Below, piece after piece: positions 27,215 through 60,295 of a stretch of DNA of 64,000 nucleotides. Source of the stretch: Lophium mytilinum (Eukaryota); the NCBI GenBank assembly GCA_010093605.1, contig MU004193.1, positions 1,495,520-1,559,519 of the forward strand, in the 5' to 3' direction. Numbering within the stretch: the stretch's first letter is position 1; each line of letters starts with the position of its first letter. The translations under genes and the position numbers were made by a program. The notes under the pieces are model-generated. The model saw only the letters and a program-made list of their open reading frames with translations, ran no database searches and was not told the origin of the DNA.

Positions 27215-27990
27215 GTGTAATGTGGGGAGGAGAAAGGGAGCTCTTAACTAGACTTTTTAACATGCGAATAACTCTTAAAGCAGCGATAAAACGCATACTA
27301 AAATCGGTACTATTATTTCTAGGGAGGGATAAGTATATACTCCCTAATTTCTCTATATATACCCCCCTATTATCTAATCTTCTAATTGGCTCGGAGGGCT
27401 TAAATTACTGCTCCGGCGTATATAAGGCCGTATATAAGGCTGTACTTATAGTAAAGCTATATAGCATACCTATTTTACTATATATACTTTCTATTTTCTA
27501 TCTATAGAGGCTATTATATTACTATATATATACCTACGCGCCTAGAAGCATACTAAAATAGTTAAAACCTTACCTTATTATAGCACCTCTGCATTAAACC
27601 TAGGCCCCTTACATTACCGCCGCACCCCTCTAGCTATCCTAATTAATAACCCCCTCTATTCTATCTAATACAATGCCATCTATTATAGGAGCTTCTTAAT
27701 AGTAAGCCGCGCCGGCGCTGCCTAAGCCTAAGGCTAAGGCTTAGCGTATTATAGAGGTGTAGGATAAGAATGTAATTATAGAGAAGTAGAATTAGTAAGC
27801 AAGCTAAGCGTAAGAATAGAGCTCCGGGCGAAGTTCTGGCCCGTTCTAGCCAATTAGAAGATTAGACGATAGGGGGGTGTGCGTGGAGGAATTAGGGGGC
27901 GTGCGTGGAGGAATTAGGGGGTGTGCGCTTATTCCTCCCCTTATTTCTGGGTGTTGAAGGAGGTAGGGAGTGCTCGAAATAGTGCGCTAG
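27215..27990. mobile_element. AT/TpA-rich degenerate repeat relic, consistent with RIP-mutated transposon sequence
   Basis: Abrupt enrichment of TA/TAG/CTA and depletion of CA/TG relative to flanks; no intact ORF; element class not identifiable. Confidence 0.6.
27873..27927 (+). repeat. 22-bp minisatellite, ~2.5 copies (GGGGGYGTGCGTGGAGGAATTA)
   Basis: Direct tandem copies visible at the right end of the RIP-like tract. Confidence 0.85.
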
Positions 27991-32029: not shown

Positions 32030-32709
32030 CTTATCGAGCGAGATTGCTAGGGAGAAAGGCGAATTAAAGACGCAGCGATCTGTCATGCGCCTTTAATAGC
32101 AGCAAGAAGGTTGTCCTACGGCAGCACAAAGGTCACTGAAAGGAACATTGCTTGGTGCATCGTGTCACGGTACTCCAGACCTTTATAGTAGATCCTATCC
32201 GGCGGAGACATGGTTCCTATGTACACGGCCCGACCACCAGGTGAGCCTCTGGATCAACCTCTTTATCTCCAAACCTTCCCCACGTGCAGACACGGTGGGC
32301 TCCGGTAATCACTCACCTGCCGAAGGCAGTTGGGCGCCGGTGTTCCTGGTTACGTTCGGTCCTTGGTTTGCCTTGGTGTGTCTTGGTGTGCAGATCTCCC
32401 CTGCATGATGACGGGGGAAGCCGAATCATTGAGAAACGTTGCAAGGCTGATGGATGAGAGCCCTGGTCTGTGCTCATTCCAACATCACCTCCTCTTTTCG
32501 CCAACTTCATCCGTCTCCTTGGACCTTCAACAGGTATACAGCCCCACTTCAACTAGATCCCAAGCTGATTTAATTTGACCGCCTAAAGGGCCTCAAACCG
32601 CGGCACCCGACCGGATATTTGCCGCCAAATTGACAGCATTTTAGGGTCAGTAGCTATCTAAACGTCTTGATCCATGTGTATATCCACCTCTATCGGCTTC
32701 GCCTAAAAC

Positions 32710-33810
32710 CATAGACACGAGTCTATTGCATCTTTACGCGTACTTCTCGGTCTATCGTGCCACCTCAAACTCCGTTGTTCATCTGTCAAAACACGTCTTT
32801 ATGCCTCATCGAGATATGTAGTCTGAAATTCATGACATCGACCATTCATTTTCTCAACATATCATAGTGCCCCAAACGGTAGCATACGTACGCCAATCTA
32901 CCCCATTTCCTATCCTTCAGATCTAGGACGTTAGGACGTCGAATCTAATACTCCCTTTGCTCATTTTCAGGGCCATTTGTGGCACCCTAACCGCGGTTAC
33001 TGCGTCACGTTTACTCCTTTACAGCGACACCACATATACGAGCTCAAATCGTCGACATTGTATAAATTTTTCCATTTGGGGTTATTGCCACCCCAGACGC
33101 CTGCGTCCAACGGGAAATCCATAGTTTTTAACCCATTGGTGATATAGAGCCTCGAATCTATGACATCTTATGCATCTATCTCTTGCCTAGGATGTGCACC
33201 CCAGACGCCTGCATTTAACGGAAAATCTGTAATTCTAGACCCTTTGGTGATTTAGAGGCTCGAATTTATGACATCTTATCCGTCTGTCTCTTGGCTAGGA
33301 TGTGCACCCCAGACGTCTGCGTCAGCTTGTAAGTCCAAGCGTGCCTACCGAGTCTAGATCTACAGTCTTGAGTCCGGCATATCTGCTGCTTGTTCCTTGT
33401 AGACTTAGGTACACCTCATGCGCCGGAATCCAATCACAAATCTATGATTTTTGATGCACTTCAGATTTGGACACTCGAGTTTTTGCATTACACGCATCAA
33501 TTATGAGTCCATTCGTAGCATCTCTGACGGTTGCATCTATGTAAGATTCTATCTCTTTAGCACTATATAGGTTTGTAGTCTCGAAGCTTTGACATCCGAT
33601 GTATATGATTTTCGGCATATTATAGCACCTTAGACGCCGGCATGCACTTGTAAGAATCCCTCTTTTACGCCTAGTCCTGATATACAACCTCGAATTTGTT
33701 ACATCCTGAGTATACCATCTTCAATAGCTCGTAGCACCTCTTACGCCGGTATCTATAAAGTAGATATCCTTTGTTCCTTGTCTGAATATTAAGCCTGTAT
33801 CTTCAACTCC
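32710..33810 (-). repeat. Degenerate tandem array of ~108-bp units (~11 copies); distant member of the 108-bp family in reverse orientation
   Basis: GACATC-like anchors at ~32728, 32834, ~32949, 33054, 33162, 33270, ~33377, ~33484, 33591, 33700, ~33797; ACCCCAGACG at 33090, 33198, 33306. Confidence 0.85.
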
Positions 33811-34929: not shown

Positions 34930-35525
34930 TAGCTGACGTCTCCTTGCCCCCGTCAGGGGTTTCCGGCTGGCCAAGAGCTACGGCAGCCGGCGAGGCTGGT
35001 GGGCGTGATTTGCTTCCAGGAGGATGAGACTCGCCAGCTCCCTCTTCATTACGTACACGCGAAGGTACACCATCAGTATCGAAGCTGGTGGTATGACAAA
35101 CTGGTGTCTCCTTGCTGCCGCCAGGGGAATCCAGCTCATCAACGGCTTCGCCAGCCGACGAGGCTGACCAGCGAGACTTCCTTGCAGGTAGGACCAGGCC
35201 AGCAACTCCACCCTCATCGACACTCACGAGAAGTCCCACCTCCCACATCGAGGCTAGTGATACAGCAAGCTAGCATCTTCTTGCAGCGTTCAGGGGCCTC
35301 CGGCTTCAGGACAACCACGGCAGCCGGCGAGGCTGCTGGCCTTGACTTGCCTCCAGGTAGGAAAAGGCCCGCTAGATCCCTCTACCCCACACCAACACCA
35401 CGACACACCATTAACATCGCAGTTGGCGAGGCAGCAAGCTAACATCTTCTTGCCACCATCAGGGGGATCCGGCTCCAGAGCAGCTGTGCCAGCCGACGAA
35501 GCTGCTGGGCATGACTTGGTTCTCC
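34930..35525 (+). repeat. Four diverged tandem copies of a 168-169-bp unit (63-nt exon-like part plus 105-106-nt intron-like part)
   Basis: CAGCCG(G/A)CGA anchors at 34984, 35152, 35321, 35490; CAG|GGG acceptors at 34956, 35124, 35293, 35462; CAG|GTAGGA donors at 35188, 35357. Confidence 0.85.
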
Positions 35526-36343
35526 CGAGACTCGAATTGTTTTCGACATCCCCACCTCCGCTGCCTCGACGTGCCAACCGTTGCCTTGCGGACACTCGAT
35601 CCCGACGCAGCCGGCTGCAGACTCGACGGGAATATCCTCAGCAGAGATACGGTAAGAGACACACTTCTCCTTCTTCCGCCGCACGGACTCCGCACGAACA
35701 CCCACGACGAGGACGAAACGGATGGCAATCGGGTCCACAAGGATTGATAACCTCCGGCACGCGCTGGTCGAGTACGTCTGCCGTAGGCAATGGCGTCCTC
35801 GCCTTCGCAAGCCTAGATCGAAACAAATCGCAGCGCTGGTGGGGAAAGACTGAAACAAACAGAGAAGATGCCAGCCCAGGCTCAAGGGTCACCTCATGCA
35901 GGGGGTGTAAAAGAGTAGCTTCAACGGAAATAGCGCGGCGAGCGGCATTAGAAGTTACCACGTATTCAGCTCTGCATGGCAGCGATGGAGACGGTGAAGG
36001 TATTCGGAGCCGTACATCTCTAGTCTCTACCACTCTGGTCTTTGCGGTAGTTACATCTTGGTGGAATAGGCTTGGATAAGGCTATTAGGTCGATGCCTTC
36101 TTCTTGAAAGAGTCCTAGGCCTTTGCTCCGGCACGTAGACCGGGAAGTCTATGGCGGACAGGTCTCAACCGTGATACTGAGATGCTTTGGATCGAGCATT
36201 GCTGATACGAGTCGCAGTTTAGGTTAGATGTTTGAAACCGCCTCCAACACACACATGCAGAACTCGTCCAGTCAACCGCTTCGAGCTTTTCGCCACAACA
36301 CTTAGTACATCAATGACCAAAGCACTGGCCCTTCATCGACAAC

Positions 36344-42129: not shown

Positions 42130-42339
42130 TCTGAAGCCTGTTTCCTGTGTGCTGTTTACTGACTCTTCGAATCGGAAGCCTGGTGGCTAGGGTTTTGGGG
42201 TGCTAGGTGGTGCATTGAGGCGTTCCAGCGGTTCTGGCGGGTGGGTTAGCATGTGTGGAGCATAGGTGTGATTTGGGCCTTCGGGCATCGGACTTCGTTT
42301 CCTGTAGCTGAATCAAGCCTTTATGGAAACGGGATTGTT

Positions 42340-44050
42340 TGCCCCACGTGATTTGAACTGTCTGGTGTGGTGTCTTGACTACCTGGGAAATGTGTGGAGG
42401 TACTTCAGACGGCGGTAGGGAGGGGTGCGGAGGCAGTGAGATTTTGGAAGATTTGGACGTTGAGGTTTGGTAGGGGGTTGGATTTGGCGCGCGTATCACG
42501 GTATAGTTCCCACGGTATGCCAGCGTTTGAGGTTCTTCAGCAGGGTCTAATTTCTCAATGTAGGATGTAAAGTTTTCAAGAGCACGATTTAGAAGGGTGC
42601 GAGATAGTATGCTCCTTGTGATTTGAACCAACTTGTGTAGTGATTTAACTGCATGGGAAATGTGTGGAGGGACTTCAGACGGTGGTAGAGCGGTAGATGT
42701 AGGCAGCGGGATCTCGTGCGGTTTGGACTGCGAGAGTTCGAGGGCGTTGGATTTGGAGTGTGTATCACGGTATATTTATCACGGTATACCACCGTTTGAG
42801 GTTCTTCAACGAAGTCTAAATTTTCTATATAGGATGTCAAATTTTCAAGAGCATGAATCAGAGGGGTGCGAGATAGTGTGCGCCTCGTTGGTATGCCGCC
42901 GTTTAAGGTTCTTCAACGAAGTCTTATTTTTCTGCTTAGGATGTCAAATTCTGAAGAACGTGAATTGGAGGGGTGGTAGGTAGACGGCTCTAACACTTAT
43001 TTACCACCGTAGGAGGTCTTCTAACAGGGTTACGAACCGTGAGTGTAATAGGCAGCGGAATCTGGTATGATGTTAACTGTGGGGTTTCGTAGGAGGTTGG
43101 GTTTAGAGTGCATGTTACGGTAAATGGATTACGGTATAGCGCCGTTTGAGGTTCTTCAACGAGGTCTAAATTTTCTGCATATGATGTAAAGTTTCCAAGA
43201 ACGCAAATTGGAGGGGCGCGGCATGCACGCTATTCGCATCTGCTTACCACCGTAGGAGGTGCTCTAACATCTTTAAAAAGTGCTGAATAGGATGTAAAGT
43301 TTCTGAGGGCGCGAATTAGAGAGGTGGTAAATAAATGCTATTTCTTCACGTCCGCCGCTGTAAGAGGTCCTCTAACTAGGTCAAAAAATAAGGTATAGGA
43401 TGTAAAGAGCTAGAACGCGTGAATTAGAAGGGTGATATTTATACCTATTCGCCACTGCATGAAGTCCTCTAACAAGATTAATAATCATTGAAGAGGATGT
43501 AGAAAGCTAGAATACGTAAAGTTGAAGGGTAATATTGGCATCGGTCCACCGCTGTATGAAGTGCTCCAACGAGGTTAAGAAATGTCGGAGAGGATGTAAA
43601 AAGCTAGAATGTGTGAAGTGGAAGGGCGATTTCTACATCTATCCACCGCCGCGAGGAGTCCTCTAGCAAGGTTACAGAAACATAGATTAGGATGTAAAGA
43701 GCTGGAACGTGTAGATTAGAAGATGCTAGATAGAGGTGGTTTATACCTGTTCGCCGCTGCAAGAGGTCCTTTTACAAGGTTAAAAAATGGGGTGTAGGAT
43801 GTGAAGAGCTGGAAGGTGTGAAATAGGAGGGTACTAGATAGATGTTGTCTACACCTGTTCGCCGCCGCAAGAAGTCCTCTAACAAGGTTATAAAAACGTA
43901 GAATAGGATGTAAAGAGCTAGAATGCTTGAATCGGAGGGTGATTAATAGACACTGTTTACACCTGTTTGCCGCTGCAAGGGGTCCTTTAGCAAGGTCGAA
44001 ATATGAGGTGTGAGATGTAAAGAGCTAGAAGGCGTGAAATGGGAAGGTAG
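42340..44050 (+). repeat. Tandem array of ~108/97-bp units (12 or more anchors) with a 270-bp higher-order duplication at its left end
   Basis: AGGATGT(A/C/G)AA-like anchors at 42562, 42831, 42938, 43181, 43289, 43397, 43494, 43591, 43689, 43796, 43905, ~44012; recurring GCCGCTGCAAGAGGTCCTCTAACAAGGTT block. Confidence 0.95.
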
Positions 44051-44286
44051 TCATCTCGTCTGCGATAACGGGCGCTAACAACCCATCCTGCCCCTCCAAA
44101 CTTCGGAACCCCTCGCTTTCTCGGACGGCAGATGAACTCGGAACCACCATGAAGAACATTTACGCCCTTCTCGTAAACGCAATGCAGCTCTCCCACCACT
44201 TCCACGCGCTCTTTCCTACTTAACTCTTTCTCGCCTTCCCAGTTGACCTCACCAATCTTCCTCTCTTTTGACCAAATCCTCCAACT

Positions 44287-46005
44287 ATGCCTCCCACCAC
44301 TTCCCCCCTCAACGACGCCAACGATGGCCTCCTCTACGTAACAATGCAGCCCAAGCCTTCCCTCCCCCTCGCCCGCTTCCACGACTGGTACAACAACGAG
44401 CACGGCCCAGGCCGCCTGCGCCTCCCCTTCGTGCCCACGGGCTTCCGCTACCGCGCCACCGACGGCCGCGCCCCGTCCCCTGAGACCCCGGAGTGGGTTG
44501 CCGTCTACGACATCAAGGATATGGACGAGCTGACGCGGGAGACTTATACACGGCTGCGCGCGCCGCCGGTGCAGAGCCAGCGGGAGCGCGACACGATGAA
44601 GGAGATCACGATCCGGCGGCGGTTCTACGACTTTATCCCCGGCGCGGAGTGGACGGCGCCGGGGTATGTGGGGCATGAGGCGGTGGGGGAGGAGGGGCGG
44701 AAGAGGGTGCTGCTGTCGGTGCTGCTGACGCTGAGGGAGGGGCAGGAGGCGGAGCGGGAAGAGAGGTTGGGGAAGTGGTATGCGGAGGAGGATGTGGGGT
44801 TGTTGCAGAAGGTGCCCGGGTGGTTGAGGACGAGAAGGTTTGTGACGAGTCGGCATGAGACGGCGGAGGGGAAGAGGGAGTTTCTTGCGCTGCATGAGTT
44901 TGAGGTGGAGAAGTATCTTGGGGAGGAGGAGTTTAGGAAAGCGGTGAGCACGGAGTGGGCGAGGAAGATTTTTGAGGAGGTGGTGGATGAGAAGAAGGTG
45001 AGGAGGGTGTATGAGTCGTATTATACGTTTGGGGCGGCGCCGAGGGACTTGGGGTGCTTGGAGTCTGAAGAGGTGGTGCCTGCAGAAAGTACGGATGGGA
45101 AGACGCGGACGACGCCAAAACAGGAGCAGAAAAGAGCGGTGATTGAGTCGTATGTCACTACGAAGGATGGAGTGGAGCTTCCGTATCGACTTGAGGGCTC
45201 ATCGGATCCGCAGGCTCCGCTTATTGTTCTCTGTAACTCGATTTTGGTGGAGATGGGGATCTGGGATGCCTTTATCGACGCATTTCTCTCGAGAGCAGAG
45301 AACAAGAAGTTTCGCATCCTGCGATATCATACGCGAGGGCGTTCAAGCAACTCCGGATCGGAGCCGGTCACGGTTGATTTGCTTGCATCAGACATCATCT
45401 CGCTCCTCGACGCTTTGAGAGTGCCGAGGGCTGCCGCAGTCATCGGTGTCAGTCTTGGAGGTGCAACAGCACTCAACGTCGGGTTGAAACACCCTGACCG
45501 AGTTGCGACATTCGTCGCCTGCGACACAAATGCCAACAGTCCCGCTGGAAACAGTAAAGCATGGGGCGAGAGAATCGCAATGGCAGAGAAGGAAGGTGCT
45601 CAAGGCCAAGGCGAAGCTGTTGTGGGAGAGGAGCTGGCCGAGGCCACGGTCAGGAGGTGGTTCGTAAAGGAAAGTTACGACGGAGGAAAGATGGAGGCGG
45701 AGATTGAGAGAGTCAAGAAGATGGTCGCGACGAACAGCCTCGCAGGCTTCAAGCACAGCGTGCAGGCACTCTTCGACTACGACCTGAGGGAGGAGATGAA
45801 GTCGTACACCGGTGAAGGCTGGGACAGCGGGGAAGGCGCGTTCCTGGTCGGTGGTGGTGATGGTGTTTTACCAAAGACGATGAAAGAAATGTCGGAATCA
45901 CTGGGACAGGGTGCACCCTACTTTGTGGTTGAGGGAGCTGGACATCTGCCCATGGTGGAGAAGCCGGAGCAGGTGGCGCTTTACGTGTCTGAGTTCTTGC
46001 ATTAG
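44287..46005 (+). CDS. Fusion of EthD-like dimeric alpha-beta barrel region and PcaD (enol-lactonase)-like alpha/beta hydrolase
   Basis: N-half FHDWYNNEHGPGRLRLP and KWYAEEDVGLLQKVPGWLRTRRF (two barrel repeats); C-half RYHTRGR, GVSLGG nucleophile elbow, TVRRWF, AGHLPMVEKPE. Confidence 0.88.
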   Translation: MPPTTSPLNDANDGLLYVTMQPKPSLPLARFHDWYNNEHGPGRLRLPFVPTGFRYRATDGRAPSPETPEWVAVYDIKDMDELTRETYTRLRAPPVQSQRERDTMKEITIRRRFYDFIPGAEWTAPGYVGHEAVGEEGRKRVLLSVLLTLREGQEAEREERLGKWYAEEDVGLLQKVPGWLRTRRFVTSRHETAEGKREFLALHEFEVEKYLGEEEFRKAVSTEWARKIFEEVVDEKKVRRVYESYYTFGAAPRDLGCLESEEVVPAESTDGKTRTTPKQEQKRAVIESYVTTKDGVELPYRLEGSSDPQAPLIVLCNSILVEMGIWDAFIDAFLSRAENKKFRILRYHTRGRSSNSGSEPVTVDLLASDIISLLDALRVPRAAAVIGVSLGGATALNVGLKHPDRVATFVACDTNANSPAGNSKAWGERIAMAEKEGAQGQGEAVVGEELAEATVRRWFVKESYDGGKMEAEIERVKKMVATNSLAGFKHSVQALFDYDLREEMKSYTGEGWDSGEGAFLVGGGDGVLPKTMKEMSESLGQGAPYFVVEGAGHLPMVEKPEQVALYVSEFLH

Positions 46006-47072: not shown

Positions 47073-48729
47073 ATGGCGTTTCTACGGAAAGCGGCGCATG
47101 CGCTGCTTGCGCTCAGCCTCGTTGGTAGGACAGTAACGCCCGTTGCTGCCATTACTTTGGATCCGACGAACTCTGGTATGTCTGCTCATACACTGTCAGC
47201 TCATCTCTTTCTCGAACCAATACAACATGTCAACTGCATCATTTCAAAAAAGACATTACACAACATCAACATGAACGATGCAGCCCAACTAACACATCCG
47301 AACCACAGACTCGATCAAAAGCGCCGCCAAAATAGTCGCGAAAGATCTCATGGGATACTACGCGACAGGCTCGACTGGTGCGGTCCTTAGCGGTATCCCC
47401 GGCTTGCTCACATACCCACCTTACTACTGGTGGGAGGCTGGCGCCATGTTCGGGCAGATGGTGGAGTACTGGTACTACACCGGCGACGACACATACAATG
47501 ATATAGTGTCGGCGGGGATGCAGAACCAAGTCGGTGTTGCGCGGGACTTTGTGCGTTCCCCAGCCTTCCAACTCGACGTTTCAAAGAACACATCTAACGC
47601 TGATACGTGCCGCAGATGCCCGCCAACCAGTCGAAAGATGAAGGTAACGACGACCAGCTCTTCTGGGCCTTCGCCGTCATGTCCGCAACCGAAGTCGGCT
47701 TCCCGAACCCTGCGGCCGACAAGCCGCAATGGCTCGCGCTGGCCCAATCCGTCTTCAACCAGCTCACAACCCGCTGGGATACCTCGCTGTGCGCCGGCGG
47801 GCTGCCCTGGCAGATCTACACCTGGAATCAGGGGTACAACTATAAGAACACCGCCGCGAACGGAGGACTCTTCCAGCTTGGCGCCCGGCTGGCGAAATAC
47901 ACCGGCAACCAGACATACGCGGACTGGGCAAATAAAGCGTACGACTGGCTTGCGAGCAGTCCGCTGATTACCGCCGATCTGCAGGTGTACGACGGAAGCA
48001 ACAGCCTGCAAAACTGCACCGACGCAGATCGGCTGCAGTGGTCGTATAACTACGGCATAATGATTGGAGGAGCTGCCTACGTTCGTCGTCCCCCAAACCC
48101 CCCTCCCTCACCCCCAAACTAACCGGGCAACCCAGATGTACAACTACACCAACGGCTCCACCATCTGGCAAACGCGCCTCACCGGCTTCCTCACGCACGC
48201 CGAATCCGTCTTCTTCCCCACCGCCTACGGCTCGCAAACCATGGTCGAAGTCGCGTGCGAAGTCACGCAGAAATGCGACGTCGACCAATGGAGTTTCAAA
48301 GCCTACCTCGCGCGGTGGATGGCCATTTCCGCACAAATCGCGCCCTTCACCGCCGCCAAGATCACGCCCTTGCTGCAAGCCTCCGCGAAGGCGGCCGCGA
48401 CGCAGTGTAACGGCGGCACCGACGGGACTGAGTGCGGCTCGCGCTGGTTCCAGGATACGTGCGACGGCAACGTGGGGGTAGGGCAGAGCATGAGCGCGCT
48501 GAGCGTCATCCAGGCGAACCTGATTGCGAGCGCGAAGGCGCCGCTGAGTGCGGATACGGGGGGGACGAGTAAGGGGAATCCGGCGGCGGGGACGGGGGGG
48601 AATGAGGGGAGTGCGAAGACAGGGTTGAGTGAGATTACGACGGCGGATAAGGCGGGGGCGGGGATTGTGACGACTTTGGCCCTCATAGCGGTTTTGGGGG
48701 GTGGGTGGTTCTTGGTTAGTGGCGATTGA
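47073..48729 (+). CDS. GH76 alpha-1,6-mannanase/transglycosylase (Dfg5/Dcw1-like), 3 introns, C-terminal anchor
   Basis: Signal peptide; YYWWEAGAMFG, EGNDDQLFWA (catalytic DD), CAGGLPWQI, WSYNYG, SFKAYLARWM, ITTADKAGAGIVT hydrophobic tail; introns 47176-47308, 47551-47615, 48081-48136. Confidence 0.95.
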
Positions 48730-49164: not shown

Positions 49165-49686
49165 TCATAGCTCTTTAGAAAAGTTCAAATATTTTTGACC
49201 GAGCTAGAGGACCTCTTACAGTGGTGGACAGGTGTAGATAGCGCCTACCTACCGCCGTGCTGATATATGTAGTTTGGCTCTTTCAATGGATCTTGTGTTT
49301 TTTGACCTTGTTAGAGGACTTCTCGTGGCGGTGAACGAGTGGAGATAGACCCCTATATAGCACTTTTCTTATTTACAAAGCCTAGCTCTTCACATCCCAT
49401 TCCACTTTTTTCAACGTCTTTAGAGTACCTCCTGCAGTGGTGAGCAGGTGTAGATAGCGCTTATCTAACAACCCTCCCAGCTTACGCGCTCTAGCTCTTT
49501 ACATCCTTTCCTACGTTTCATAACTTCGTTGGTGGAACCTCCTGCAGTGGTAAACAGGTTCTACCTAGCATCATATCAATTCACATAACCTAGCTCTTTA
49601 CATCCTGTTCTACGTTCTACAACTTACTTGGAGGACTCCTTGCGGCGGCGAGCAGGTGTAGACAACGTCTTTACCACTACAGCATA
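49165..49686 (-). repeat. Five reverse-oriented copies of the 108-bp family unit
   Basis: TAGAGGACC-like anchors at 49205, 49312, 49421, 49530, 49629 (spacing 107, 109, 109, 99); CTAGCTCTTTACATCCT is the reverse complement of the 43-kb motif. Confidence 0.93.
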
Positions 49687-50863
49687 CTACAACATCATGG
49701 ACCTACCAGCGTCGCTACCGCTATGGATGGATTCCACCTCCGGCCACTTCCTCGAAGGCAGCAGCTCCGCCAATAAAGGTTCTTCGCTGCCCAGAACGTT
49801 ATCGAAGAACGCCGAGGTAATCGCCGTTTGGATATGCCACATCCGCGAGCTGTTGATCGTACCCACCAATGTGGTATTAACGCGTCCCCTCAAGTGGAGC
49901 AGCTCATGCCATAGCCCGACGTCCGAGAAGTCAAGATGGTGGGTGCCGCTGACCCTCAACTCCTCCCACCACGCGGTCTGGTTTCCTTCGAACCACTACC
50001 CGCTGAGACCGTAGATAATGTCATCGTAGCCGTGCTGGCCGTCGCGGAGCATCAAAAAGGGCTTCGCGACATCGACGGTGCCGCCGAAGAGAGTGTCAAT
50101 GAAGGCACCGTCATAGTTGATCTCGGCGATCACAGCGTCGTGGCGAGACACCACGGCGGTGCCAACGCCACCTTCTGTGGAGAATCCGAAGTGCATTTAG
50201 GTGGATGTATTGAAGGGAGCGCGGGGCTCTTCGACAAGAGGCGGGGAGACCTGCAGCAGGGCGTCGAAGTCGGTTTTGTAGTTTCAGTTGACTTTGTAAA
50301 GAAGAGTGTCCTTGGCCTAGTCGTACTCAATCGGGAACCCGTACACGCTGCCACCTCCGTATGGTCTCTTCAAGAATGGTAGCTCTCCCGGGTGGTCGAT
50401 GCATAGAACAGTGGAGCCTTGCGAAGCCATATCTGAAGTGATCATGGTGTTAGACGAGCAGGGCATACCAGCTCCTGGAGAGAATAAGATTGTTGGGTAT
50501 CTGCGTGCGCCCCGTAGGACCGGGAAGAACGGGCGGCTGCAATTGGAGATGAGTCCATAGTTTCTGCAACTCCCCATTCGGGATCCCCCATCCTTGCTCA
50601 ATCAGTCTGGCTAGCTCGAAGTCCATATACTTCGAAGAGGTCTCGGCGGTTGGCGGTCTGTTAGTCCGATGCAAGACATTCACCACGATGAATTCGCCGG
50701 TGTTATTTGACCCTTTCGGCGCCAGAGAGTGGTCATGAGTGGTGTGCTTGAACATATGCTGTGTCTCTCCGACATGGTAAATGCCAGATGGCTTCGGGAA
50801 GAACACTTTGCCGCCTGCGGCTACAACCGCGACGAAGATTGTTATAAGCACTACCAACAGCAT
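49687..50863 (-). pseudogene. Pseudogene of a secreted PAF-acetylhydrolase-like alpha/beta hydrolase
   Basis: PKPSGIYHVG, YPTILFSPGAG, DMASQG..IDHPGE, GTHHLDFSD motifs; frameshift near 50510; in-frame stops at 50319-17, 50286-84, 50199-97, 49998-96; nucleophile elbow reads GFSTEG. Confidence 0.88.
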
Positions 50864-56811: not shown

Positions 56812-57069
56812 TTCGGATCCGTATGATGGCGAGAGTGGTGCTGATATGGGCCAGAACACACGAGTCGGATGATCCAGAAAGGGTTGGATCCGGAGTATTG
56901 GGATTGACCGCTGTTATGTCCTTTCCAAGGAGGTCGGAAACACGAATACGGCCTTTTGACAGTGAGCCGGTATTCTCAGGAAGTTGCATGGTAGTCGGTT
57001 TTAGAGCGTAGATATATAGAATATAATGCAAAGAGTCAGAATTTATCAATGAGAAAAGTGTTCTCTAGG

Positions 57070-57260
57070 TACTATTCGCCCTTGTTTACCACTACATAAA
57101 GTTTCTCAGCATACTGCGAGCGATTTGGATCGAGTGTAAGGATCCAGTGCCCATGGTTCAGATAGGGGTAATTCGGGGTCACTTGCACGTGTATAGCGCT
57201 GTGTAGAGTCCTCCGGCCTATTGTGTGCACATCGAACGGGATGGAAAGAGTTGGACACCA
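57070..57260 (+). repeat. Two strongly diverged copies of the 108-bp family unit
   Basis: CTTGTTTACCACTACATAAAGTTTCTC (anchor 57099) and GAGTCCTCC (57206) are 107 bp apart; each is followed 36 nt later by the TGTAA/TGGAAAGAGTTGGA block, the same spacing as in the 43.46-kb unit. Confidence 0.65.
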
Positions 57261-57275
57261 TAGATTAGATGAGCT

Positions 57276-58139
57276 CTACGCCATTAGGCCTCCATCGATA
57301 ATCTGAACAGTTCCAGTAATATATGTCGACCCATCACACAGTAACCAGGAAATCAAACTCGCCACCTCCTCTGGCTGCCCTTTCCTTTTAATCGGAGCGT
57401 TGTAGTTCCCCGGAGCGCCCCTGATGCGCTCCGATTCGCGGTGCATTTCAGTGTCTATAATCCCACTGCATCGAAATCATCAGCGCCTTCAACCCTCAGA
57501 GCAGCATAGAAGTCGAACCTACGGTGCAATACAGTTCACCCTAATCCCTCGATCCGCCACTTCTTTCGCCGCGGACTTCGTCAACCCAATCACCCCATGT
57601 TTGCTCACCGTGTATGCAGAGTTCTTCGCAAACCCGCCGAGTCCCGCGATACTCGCCGCATTCACGATACTCCCTTTATTCTTCATCTCCCGGATTTGCG
57701 CACGCATACAGTACATGACGCCCGTAATGTTCACATCCATAACGAACTTCCAGTCCTCGTCTTTCAGGTCTTCCACGCGGTCGATGTTGATGCTTTTCGG
57801 AATCACGCCCGCGAGATTGGCCGCTCCGTCTAGTTTCCCGAAGGTCTTGACGACGTCGGCGATCCAGGCATCGACTTGGGCGCCGTCGCGTACGTCAACC
57901 ACAGTGGACATGATGGTGCCACCGGCGGTTTTGATGTCGGAGGCGGCGGTCTTGAGGTGGGCTTCATTGAGGTCCATGATGGCTACTTTGGCACCCTGGG
58001 AGGCAAGTAGGGTGGCGGTTGCGAGGCCGATGCCCGAGGCGGCGCCGGTTATGGCGATGACTTTGTCTTTTACATTGAAACTGGGGGCGGTGTGCGTGAA
58101 GTCTTTGGCGGTTTCTGTTCCTAGGAGGTCGACGGACAT
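57276..58139 (-). CDS. Classical short-chain dehydrogenase/reductase, intron 57522-57466
   Basis: TGAASGIG, NLAG, IVNAAS, YTVSK (YxxxK), GIRVNCIAPGIIDT, GQPEEVA..YITG..IDGG. Confidence 0.95.
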
Positions 58140-59752
58140 TTTGATAGACGCGCGTTGTCAAGCAAGCTGGATGACCTTGTGTAGGTGAGAGCCTTGTTGA
58201 GGAGCGTTCGATGTTTGGAAGGGGTGGAGGATTAGAAGACAGGTTGAGTACTGGGAATTCGGAGGAGTTATGTACCCAAAAGGCCTGGCAACACCCAGGT
58301 GCACCACTCGGTATAGAGCAAGCCTTCAAGATCTCGCGTTTTCCGGGACATCGAGTCTTTGTTCAGTTGAGTGTTGGTAAATATGAGGAACTGACGAATG
58401 AAAGGCAAATCCGGGGAACGCTTCCCCGCAACCCCCCACATTTCGCTTGATCTTGTCCGAAGCCGTGTCTACATCGTATCCACCTCGAACTCATGGCCTT
58501 CGGAAGATAATTGAAAAGGACTGACTTTTAGTTGTCCAATTCGAGAGATTGATAATCAAATTCCGGGTACTGTTCTCCGAATGGGTTTTAAAAGCCTCGC
58601 ATTAGCACTTGCCAGCACCGAAACATAAGTCTGGCCACTCTTGCAACTACCTGGCGTAGCTAGCTTAGGCTTTGGAGAACTGAACTACGATGTAAGCTTG
58701 ACCGCAGTGGATTAGAGAGTACTTCTCAGCCCACTGCACTTACGTTAGCTATAGCACTCTTTGCAGTGGTTTTTCGATAGCAAGAGTGTGGCTAGAGAAA
58801 GCAGTATATCCATGTCCTTAGATTCGGGAGCTACTACTGTATTTCGACAGTGTGGGAGCTTTGAAAGTTTGGATGGCCTGCGTGTTAGAGGTGAAGTCGG
58901 AAGAGACTTGCAGGTTTGAGCTATATAAGCTTTTTCCGATAACTTCCCAGCCCTGAAATGCTCCACGAGGTGGATAGAATGGGCTAGAGTCTTGCCTACG
59001 TGTCCTGCGAAGTTCATCAGGGTGATGCGATGGAGACTAGGCTACCTTTTGTGTGGTTCGTGGGCTGCTACTTGGGTCACTCCTAACAGTAGCATTGGGT
59101 GAGCAAGGATAGAGCGTACGGACTAGAAAGCTTGTGCGCTTAGGGTGTAGATATTCCGGCACAATGTAGAGGTCAATATAGTCTAATTTAGAAACGTTTT
59201 GAGTGGCTAGTGAAGTGTTGGCTGGGGAACTGCTGAAGGTGGTATCGAGGGAGCTAGATTAGGCGCCTGAGGAGAACTCCATATCGATTCCTAGATTGAC
59301 TTAGATAAGAAACGGCGTTCCGGAAAACCATATCGGGATAACTTGCCTTCTATTCCTCAACCTATTGTTGTTCTCATCATATTTCTTATTTCTTTCTTTT
59401 CAAGGTTGATTCTCCACAGTCACACAATCCCAGCCACTCCCCTGCAGCCACCCGCATATGCCAAGCACCATCCCGGCGGACGTTCTCGAACCAGGGTCTC
59501 AATCTTGGATCAGACGCGAAGTGACGCAATGTGGTGGTAACAGTAAATGAAGGCATAAACCTGCCCCACGAACTTCACGATAAAAGGTTATCGAAACTCT
59601 ATCCCAAACAGCAAGCTCTCCAATATATCTCTTGGACAATCAATAGAACTTTCGGTAGAAAACCCCAACCGCTGCGTCGATCCACAAAGCCGATGCTAAC
59701 CTCATCAGAATACAACTCCGCCAATATCCTAAAGATATAAATTTGGCCTACG

Positions 59753-60097
59753 ATGTCCTTCCCAATCCTCTTTACAATCGACGGCGTTTCCCGTCACGAA
59801 GTCGTTCTCATCTCCCGCAGCTCCGACATCAAGCAGCTCAACAATCTGATCACGAAGACCGCCGCCGCGTCCCCGAACTGCTCGGAGTGGGGTTCCAAAT
59901 TCAAGAAGCAGGACGAGAGCGGGCCAAAGGAGCATATCACGGAGTTCAAAATCCAGTGGGCGACTGAGGGAAGGGATATGAAGTTCTGGCCTCCGAGCAC
60001 TGTGATTACGGGAGAGAACATTGAAGCGGTGTTGGCGATGGTTGAGAAAGGCGCGGGGAAAGATGTGTTAGTTGTTAGTATGGCGAAGGGAGAGTAG
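59753..60097 (+). CDS. Hypothetical 114-aa protein
   Basis: ATG start, coding-like codon bias, upstream TATAAA at ~59736; no family recognised. Confidence 0.7.
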   Translation: MSFPILFTIDGVSRHEVVLISRSSDIKQLNNLITKTAAASPNCSEWGSKFKKQDESGPKEHITEFKIQWATEGRDMKFWPPSTVITGENIEAVLAMVEKGAGKDVLVVSMAKGE

Positions 60098-60139
60098 TAG
60101 GGGGGTTTTGATTACTATTTTCCGCTTTCCAATCCGCGT

Positions 60140-60295
60140 GTTCTAGCTCCTTGATCCTAATCCACGCTTTTGACCCTTCAAAGAACTCCTTGTAGCGGTG
60201 AAAATAGCGCTTATCTAGCACCCTTCCAGTTCCCTTAGTCTAGCTTTTTACATCCAATTCCACGTTTCATAACATTTTTAGAGGACTCTATCGGT
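60140..60295 (-). repeat. ~1.5-2 reverse-oriented copies of the 108-bp family unit
   Basis: CTAGCT anchors at 60143 and 60240 (97 bp); ATAGCGCTTATCTAGCACCC and CTAGCTTTTTACATCC..ACGTTTCATAAC..TAGAGGACTC match the 49.45-49.54-kb units. Confidence 0.88.

Follow-up and report, generated by a model that had tools for sequence, protein, structure and literature searches.

We confirmed a family of non-coding tandem repeats, with a unit of about 108 bp arranged head to tail, at five intergenic loci within 28 kb of a 64-kb stretch of DNA (the window, by which we mean the whole of the sequence analysed). The sequence of this family is new and its kind is ordinary: with slightly better than even confidence, we interpret it as an ancient minisatellite family of euchromatin that expanded by unequal exchange, is now decaying and is incidentally transcribed. 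The new evidence includes a spliced RNA over its largest array (array A) and the presence of another array (array D) inside the 3′UTR of a gene, where it is also found in a contig from a related species. We do not think that the repeat is needed for anything.

The window is nuclear DNA of a filamentous ascomycete, as indicated by the domains of its ORFs (fungal Zn2Cys6/Fungal_trans_2, NACHT-NLR, GH76, OST48, RTA1 and similar) and by the GT..AG joints of 48-133 nt which contigs of a public run carry in its genes. A look-up of its OST48 piece also points to Ascomycota. The entire 64 kb yields neither a tRNA nor an Rfam match at curated thresholds. The genes next to the arrays are ordinary and in part housekeeping ones, coding for an RRM export factor, a GH76 protein, hydrolases and a transcription factor.

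The repeat unit and its five arrays

An earlier note on this DNA had described tandem arrays at five intergenic loci, present in both orientations and comprising some 30 units over 28 kb, with periods of 97-98 and 107-109 bp. Tandem Repeats Finder, repeat seeds and a unit profile agree on these arrays and recover the same periods, along with a 269-bp higher-order form. Tandem Repeats Finder reports periods of 269 bp (42348-42885), 107 bp (42783-42975), 97 bp (43397-43707) and 108 bp (43688-44049 and 33089-33320). Exact seeds recur in array A at spacings of 97, 97, 97, 108, 108 and 108 bp, and also of 269, 107, 243, 108 and 108 bp, and in array B at spacings of 109 and 99 bp; seed-and-extend comparison links array A in inverted orientation to 49.2-49.7 kb and 60.2 kb. 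A profile started from seven units and iterated with nhmmer over the 64-kb window (cut-off E<=0.05) recovers 24 units, the best at E=9e-24: 15 in A (42448-44051, plus strand), five in B (49193-49675, minus), two in C (57026-57217, plus), one in D (60169-60255, minus) and one in E (33620-33707, minus). The same profile gives no unit match at E<=0.05 in 1-32 kb of the window. A profile built from array E only finds seven units at a spacing of about 108 bp between 32761 and 33705; six of these are additional to the 24 general-profile matches, and hence the total comes to about 30. Our consensus agrees with that of the earlier note, and the strand on which the unit is read there is G-rich (GC skew +0.27 over 42-44 kb). 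Tandem rows, 24 profile matches and stop codons in every frame together define a head-to-tail non-coding unit whose similarity is above chance.

The independence of the more divergent arrays was assessed with a profile of 18 units that excluded those of E and C according to the round-one list. It still matches array C (E=3.2e-7) and array E (E=3.9e-4), the latter through one unit accompanied by two in-register matches below threshold, and the E profile in its turn gives in-register sub-threshold matches in the left part of A. The membership of array C in the family is solid, and array E is probably a distant relative that is weakly tied to the other arrays, with further decayed units likely to be present on either side of its significant stretch.

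Array A displays the richest internal anatomy (Table 1). Its three adjacent 97-bp units have an 11-bp deletion in common, they are followed by three 108-bp units, and each of the two copies of its 269-bp higher-order repeat comprises about two and a half diverged units. Such adjacent sub-families, which would arise from local unequal exchange, bear out the tandem amplification that had been proposed from the sequence.

Table 1. Positions in the window of the repeat arrays, the constituent parts of array A and the transcript crossing it
Feature	Position	Strand	Description
Array A	42340-44051	+	largest, about 16 units; tandem-repeat and profile evidence
Part of array A	42340-42878		269-bp higher-order repeat, two copies
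Part of array A	42879-43396		mixed 107/243/108-bp units
Part of array A	43397-43687		97-bp deletion variant, three copies
Part of array A	43688-44011		108-bp units, three copies
Part of array A	44012-44051		40-nt partial unit
Spliced transcript through array A	42798-44033	-	one 1179-nt RNA-derived contig, identical to the window
Intron of array A transcript	43062-43118	-	57 nt, GTAACA...TTAAC...CAG
Array B	49168-49675	-	5 units; profile evidence
Array C	57026-57278	+	2 units and a partial one, strongly diverged
Array D	60115-60292	-	one full unit between two partial units
Array E	32525-33765	-	distant sub-family; 7 significant units at about 108-bp spacing in 32761-33705

We also looked for copies elsewhere. 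In a public run (X1, the likely source run), among the pieces listed at 80% likeness or more, none lies as a second one on B, C, D or most of A, a result of little weight at a threshold below which copies as diverged as the units of the window would fall. The summed depth of this run at the arrays equals that of the single contig spanning them (154.2 and 167), the exception being the bin at 42335-43001 (169.1). A 17-nt degenerate motif of the unit has at least 119 single matches in metagenomes; none of 80 such loci fits the unit profile at E<=0.01, and the matches are therefore attributable to chance.

Age and decay of the units

Pairwise identity is 62-82% among the units of the right part of A, B and D, and 40-61% between these and the units of C, E and the left part of A; the units of B are 63-70% identical to each other and no nearer to each other than to A units. 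The maximum-likelihood tree of the units is star-like, with only 2 of 16 inner branches well supported, both of them within clades of the left-A sub-family (99/98 and 95/95). Its terminal branches measure 0.2-0.4 in B and D and 0.05-0.19 in the right part of A. With this identity of 40-82% and such a tree, the units are old; the pattern is that of an early burst and subsequent decay, any later duplication being local and confined to the large array A.

The earlier note had described conserved blocks alternating with variable stretches. For this, we counted parsimony changes per column on the unit tree and compared their dispersion with a Poisson expectation. For 14 core units (84 columns) the dispersion index is 1.01 (p=0.45); it is 1.30 with 20 units (p=0.027) and 1.36 with 19 units over 86 columns (p=0.017), the unit phase of this last set having been rotated to keep the suspect block away from the alignment end. 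There are slightly more unchanging columns than expected (14 versus 8.2, p=0.035; 6 versus 2.6, p=0.05), and most of them fall in GGATGTAAAGAG and around GT-C.T. Thus, a mild excess of unchanging columns does exist, but with an index of 1.0-1.36 changes are spread nearly evenly along the unit, and the signal of conserved columns looks faint. The claim that the unit bears a palindrome is likewise overstated: the motif AGAGG-T-CCTCT, with its 1-nt loop, exists, but is perfect in just 1 of 19 units and has at most one mismatch in 5 of 19. The CCGCCG core is eroded by transitions in most units. The earlier note had reasoned that uniform divergence without block conservation would mark an ordinary decaying satellite; the near-uniform divergence seen here brings the family close to that, although the faint block signal remains.

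The scatter of changes between units also bears on whether repeat-induced point mutation (RIP) has shaped them. The index TpA/ApT resembles that of RIP in A, B and D (1.16-1.71) and does not in C and E (0.86). Changes relative to the consensus are without direction (135 GC>AT, 151 AT>GC), with 286 transitions and 167 transversions, and C>T rates are 0.26 at CpA, 0.26 at CpG, 0.18 at CpT and 0.07 at CpC. With a dinucleotide index that is mixed across the arrays and changes that are undirected, the units show no clear RIP signature.

On the interpretation that we favour, an ancestral unit of about 108 bp would have been amplified head to tail through unequal exchange or replication slippage. Short pieces of several units would then have settled, at an early date, in a number of intergenic sites close by. 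Their route can no longer be read from the sequence; the candidates are circular repeat DNA that was excised and inserted again, a carrier element since lost, or an older array that broke up. Afterwards the copies would have drifted in a near-neutral fashion, with array A alone acquiring younger local duplications, and they would be transcribed wherever they fall in transcription units, leftwards in A and within the 3′UTR in D. Neutrality is judged here from the comparison of units with one another within the window, and the excess of unchanging columns in GGATGTAAAGAG and GT-C.T counts against a reading by decay.

The units are neither coding nor a structured RNA

A coding repeat is ruled out, as stops break every frame on both strands and the family includes units of 97 bp. 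Stops likewise interrupt every frame of the spliced RNA of array A. The longest open stretches of the array lack a start codon and have no Pfam match, and, for a 102-aa open frame of the array, none of 127 word-sharing candidates, all from near its length band, reaches E<=0.01.

Nor do the units fold in a conserved manner. RNAalifold z-scores range from -0.79 to +0.07 against column shuffles on both strands and in two phases, and these alignments reveal no covariation. An Rfam search over the arrays gives no match at the gathering score, and in its permissive mode a single chance match (E=3.3) over A and none over B; a tRNA search is also empty. We thus reject an origin from a snoRNA, tRNA, SINE or 5S RNA. 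Neither a fold with compensatory changes nor a known family that would mark a structured non-coding RNA was found, and the processed RNA units that the earlier note had put forward are not borne out.

Transcription of arrays A and D

Two of the arrays are represented in RNA. A public run (X3) contains 86% of the sampled words of 42340-46100 in contigs that are identical to the window and that carry intron-sized GT..AG or CT..AC joints, on which ground we take them to be RNA-derived. The lack of X3 cover over array B and the array within C is not a sign of silence; likewise, the missing cover over array A in the run of a related species (X4) carries no evidential weight. One X3 contig comprises the segments 42798-43061 and 43119-44033 of array A at a depth of 42.9, and the ends of its joint, CT..AC, place the transcript on the minus strand. 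The excised intron resembles the other confirmed introns of the window in size and signals. Hence, array A is read leftwards into a spliced RNA without an ORF.

On one side of array A lies the 3′ end of an RRM/FoP gene, with an RNA contig that stops at 42304; on the other lies an alpha/beta-hydrolase gene, its 5′ end facing the array, with an RNA contig that starts at 44137 and the ATG at 44287. The array A contig ends at 44033, leaving a gap of 104 nt to the hydrolase mRNA contig, which starts on the opposite strand, and from this layout we infer divergent transcription out of one promoter region; array A is probably transcribed from a divergent promoter that it has in common with the hydrolase gene. 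As this arrangement fits a single bidirectional promoter, it points to incidental transcription.

Array D starts 18 nt past the stop (60097) of a 118-aa plus-strand ORF, within the transcript of that gene. A plus-strand X3 contig with a GT..AG intron at 59654-59707 spans 59708-60251, and array D thus lies within the 3′UTR. The X4 contig of the related species has a D unit at the same place, with 43 mismatches and 10 gaps over 59708-60254, a comparison of 547 nt that takes in coding sequence as well. Small insertions in the X4 contig coincide with an 8-nt deletion of the D unit of the window relative to the family. Therefore, D predates the split of the two organisms. The small gene itself (59741-60097, plus strand) has no Pfam match and is both conserved and expressed in the contigs of the related species.

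These transcripts permit a different reading, in which the repeat acts at the RNA level: array A would yield either a repeat-built, spliced lncRNA or small RNAs, with the dispersed copies in UTRs as targets, in a fungal parallel to euchromatic satellite transcripts. The RNA over A is properly spliced and not rare (its contig has a depth of 42.9, that of the transcription-factor gene nearby about 5, contig depth being a poor measure of expression), and both of the two transcripts, that of A and that of D, present the same C-rich strand of the unit, the complement of the earlier consensus. These two facts count against simple decay; the spliced transcript, the common strand and the location of D in a 3′UTR are what a function in RNA would lead one to expect. 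However, the units have no conserved secondary structure, covariation or Rfam family, at 40-82% likeness they are too diverged for most small-RNA pairing, and the layout at array A fits transcription from a divergent promoter. We consider an RNA-level function highly improbable.

The arrays and their neighbouring genes

A comparison of the five loci shows no shared placement relative to genes. The two largest arrays, A and E, each lie 5′ of a gene and are co-oriented with it, E being about 0.5-1.7 kb upstream of a minus-strand gene for a secreted protein of the 5′-nucleotidase type. In contrast to these, B, C and D are found at the 3′ ends of genes and outside promoters. Array B starts 12 nt past the stop of a minus-strand gene with a faint likeness to PAF-acetylhydrolase (its stop-to-stop frame ends at 49687) and lies between convergent genes, with the 3′ end of the GH76 gene on its opposite side; array C has a beta-lactamase-family gene (plus strand) on one side and a short-chain dehydrogenase gene (minus strand) on the other, both with their 3′ ends towards it.

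The 5′ location and co-orientation of A and E may be chance, yet they count against a reading by decay and have a place in a further alternative, namely that each unit is a module to which a protein binds and that the arrays, as multimers of it, work as upstream or insulating elements and tune their neighbours, perhaps via a Zn2Cys6 factor. A gene for such a factor is present in the same neighbourhood (51.8-53.5 kb), the modest excess of invariant columns includes the low-change GGATGTAAAGAG and CC..C.G with CCG triplets, A and E precede genes and keep one orientation towards them, and a depth of 343 is reached by the contig of the hydrolase mRNA beside array A. Against this, B, C and D do not lie in promoters, the palindrome is not kept (1 of 19 units perfect) and the CCGCCG core is eroded in most units, the dispersion of changes is near Poisson, and contig depth says little about expression. 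The array of binding sites offered in the earlier note draws little from changes per column that are this close to Poisson (1.01; 1.30-1.36), and we regard it as distinctly unlikely that the units serve as binding modules.

A bolder form of these functional readings would be a euchromatic satellite restricted to this domain and retained for its activity, exerted either via the spliced repeat RNA of array A or via a protein reading GGATGTAAAGAG. All five loci cluster in 28 kb and the other 32 kb of the window has none, a distribution that is unusual for dispersal at random and counts against mere decay of scattered copies. We hold such a retained satellite to be highly doubtful. If true, it would couple the genes of a neighbourhood of about 28 kb, with its hydrolases, reductases and Zn2Cys6 factor, in expression or chromatin state; with its units in the promoters and 3′UTRs there, the family would parallel, in a fungus, the euchromatic satellites that modulate genes in beetles and flies. 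Conserved arrays that regulate the genes around them would matter much more than a decaying repeat; the present evidence is not in favour of this.

Possible origins of the five loci

Relatives of the unit are indeed found at five separate sites in both orientations and with unrelated flanks, as the idea of a mobile satellite has it, but nothing points to the Helitron or MITE carrier that had been suggested along with it. The 600-bp flanks of the five loci have nothing in common beyond a 20-nt chance match, which also rules out a segmental duplication. There are no terminal inverted repeats (TIRs), the inverted pairs that involve the arrays being solely arrays in opposite orientation, and none of the 146 ORFs of at least 110 aa in the window has a transposase, reverse transcriptase, Rep/helicase or recombinase domain. 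The absence of TIRs, a transposase and a usable ORF thus agrees with the earlier note, and an autonomous element carrying the same unit, which it had envisaged, is not among these 146 ORFs. RNAalifold finds no stable or conserved subterminal hairpin in the units, and the phases in which the arrays start vary between loci. By eye, A, C and D may end in one phase at their 3′ side, an impression confined to these three arrays. The arrays lack the marks both of a Helitron/Helentron, given the flanks, the fold and a palindrome perfect in 1 of 19 units, and of a MITE with TIRs and target-site duplication, given unrelated flanks and inverted pairs that are array against array. The mobile-satellite idea is neither shown nor excluded by this.

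The arrays might still be the relic internal tandem repeats of a non-autonomous transposon of the Helitron/Helentron, MITE or foldback type whose ends have decayed. Such an origin would explain why the arrays are short, lie apart from one another in both orientations and have unrelated flanks; the genome does have a MITE-like element with 57-nt inverted ends (27342-27897), and such carriers are described in animals, for instance the Helentron-borne arrays of the oyster (PMC7492417). It is at odds with the lack of TIRs, common termini or shared flank modules at the five loci, of a stable subterminal hairpin and of any Rep/helicase, DDE or tyrosine-recombinase domain in the 146 ORFs, and with start phases that differ among loci. 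We judge it unlikely.

Alternatively, one long ancestral array could have been split by local inversions and insertions with no dispersal at all. The loci are confined to 28 kb and occur in either orientation, and the units of B are equally far from each other and from A units. On the tree neither B nor D forms a clade, a topology that is nonetheless compatible with a single origin per array. Moreover, the arrays are separated by ordinary, partly housekeeping genes and several independent rearrangements would be needed. This break-up of an array appears very unlikely.

Introner-like elements are known from Dothideomycete fungi, and the consensus unit, read on its G-rich strand as GTAAAG ... 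CTAAC ... N22 TAG, resembles them in its intron-like length of about 105 nt. Unlike them, the units are tandem and intergenic, the CTRAY branch site is kept in 5 of 19, the 5′ site lacks the +5 G that is present in 8 of 10 confirmed introns of the window, and splicing occurs on the other strand. The D transcript runs unspliced through its unit, and the intron of A is on the opposite strand and at another site. We therefore rejected an introner origin.

Comparison with known systems

To our knowledge, satellite-type repeats are scarce in the gene-rich parts of filamentous ascomycete genomes. A search of the literature by title and abstract listing found no fungal family of this kind, and four 13-nt motifs of the unit led to a single, unrelated zebrafish paper. 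The family is thus a small addition to the catalogue of fungal repeats.

The 1.688 X-linked repeats of Drosophila are a euchromatic satellite-like family near genes. Satellite-like repeats near genes are likewise described for the TCAST-like elements and the euchromatic tandem-repeat families of Tribolium (PMC3411249, PMC4675708, PMC5844308). The present family resembles those of beetles and flies in its short arrays of one to a dozen units, a monomer of at least 100 bp, a location in gene-rich DNA, the occurrence of both orientations, a position near or inside transcription units and the transcription of some arrays. In the beetle and fly families the copies are young and alike, and there is a parent satellite that is large, homogeneous and heterochromatic, whereas the fungal family has no known parent array, an identity of 40-82% and all of its seen copies within 28 kb.

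In the Pacific oyster, tandem repeats reside on non-autonomous Helentrons (PMC7492417), and elsewhere the flanks of arrays suggest satellite dispersal (PMC5139131). The five loci resemble arrays borne by Helentrons, Helitrons or MITEs in being dispersed short arrays of satellite-like monomers; they differ from them in having no conserved ends, hairpin, TIR, target-site duplication or shared flank.

Like minisatellites and VNTRs, the family has non-coding units set head to tail and variant sub-arrays within its arrays, and its growth is put down to unequal exchange or slippage; it is unlike a VNTR, which normally occupies a single locus, in being present at five. The second occurrence of array A, in the X3 RNA contig, is identical in sequence to the window.

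The repeats in CYP51 promoters that confer azole resistance in Aspergillus fumigatus and Penicillium digitatum are tandemly duplicated promoter enhancers. Arrays A and E are like these in that the CYP51 repeats consist of units of roughly 30-130 bp upstream of a gene. The CYP51 repeats are young and near-identical, have a known binding site and concern one gene, whereas the arrays here are old, diverged and mostly outside promoters.

The family is of modest practical use: for annotation, the intergenic arrays described here serve as a warning, as they are neither genes nor transposons. They also provide one clear case of a tandem repeat that was taken up, whether by exaptation or by simple inclusion, into a 3′UTR and into a non-coding transcript that is spliced.

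Other features of the window

Several further features of the window deserve mention. The MITE-like element at 27342-27897 is AT-rich and about 560 bp long, and its 57-nt inverted ends are 81% complementary; a 22-bp tandem repeat lies at its right end (27873-27927). It resembles a non-autonomous DNA transposon of the MITE type and is unrelated to the 108-bp family. Just beyond array E, 34931-35526 holds four copies of a GC-rich direct repeat of 168-169 bp (71-74% alike), with overlapping open frames on both strands, no Pfam match and a spacing that is not a steady multiple of 3. Between this repeat and array E, the very GC-rich segment 33878-34530 (about 60%) has low-complexity open frames rich in Pro, Arg and Leu on both strands, again with no Pfam match.

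The alpha/beta-hydrolase ORF next to array A (44272-46002, plus strand) has about 300 N-terminal residues without a domain match before the hydrolase fold, and a 403-aa open frame antisense to it is probably spurious. At the GH76 gene (47444-48490), contigs of both the source run (X1) and the RNA run (X3) show joints of 441-855 nt whose ends are not GT..AG; these probably stem from paralogous GH76 genes elsewhere in the genome that align piecewise.
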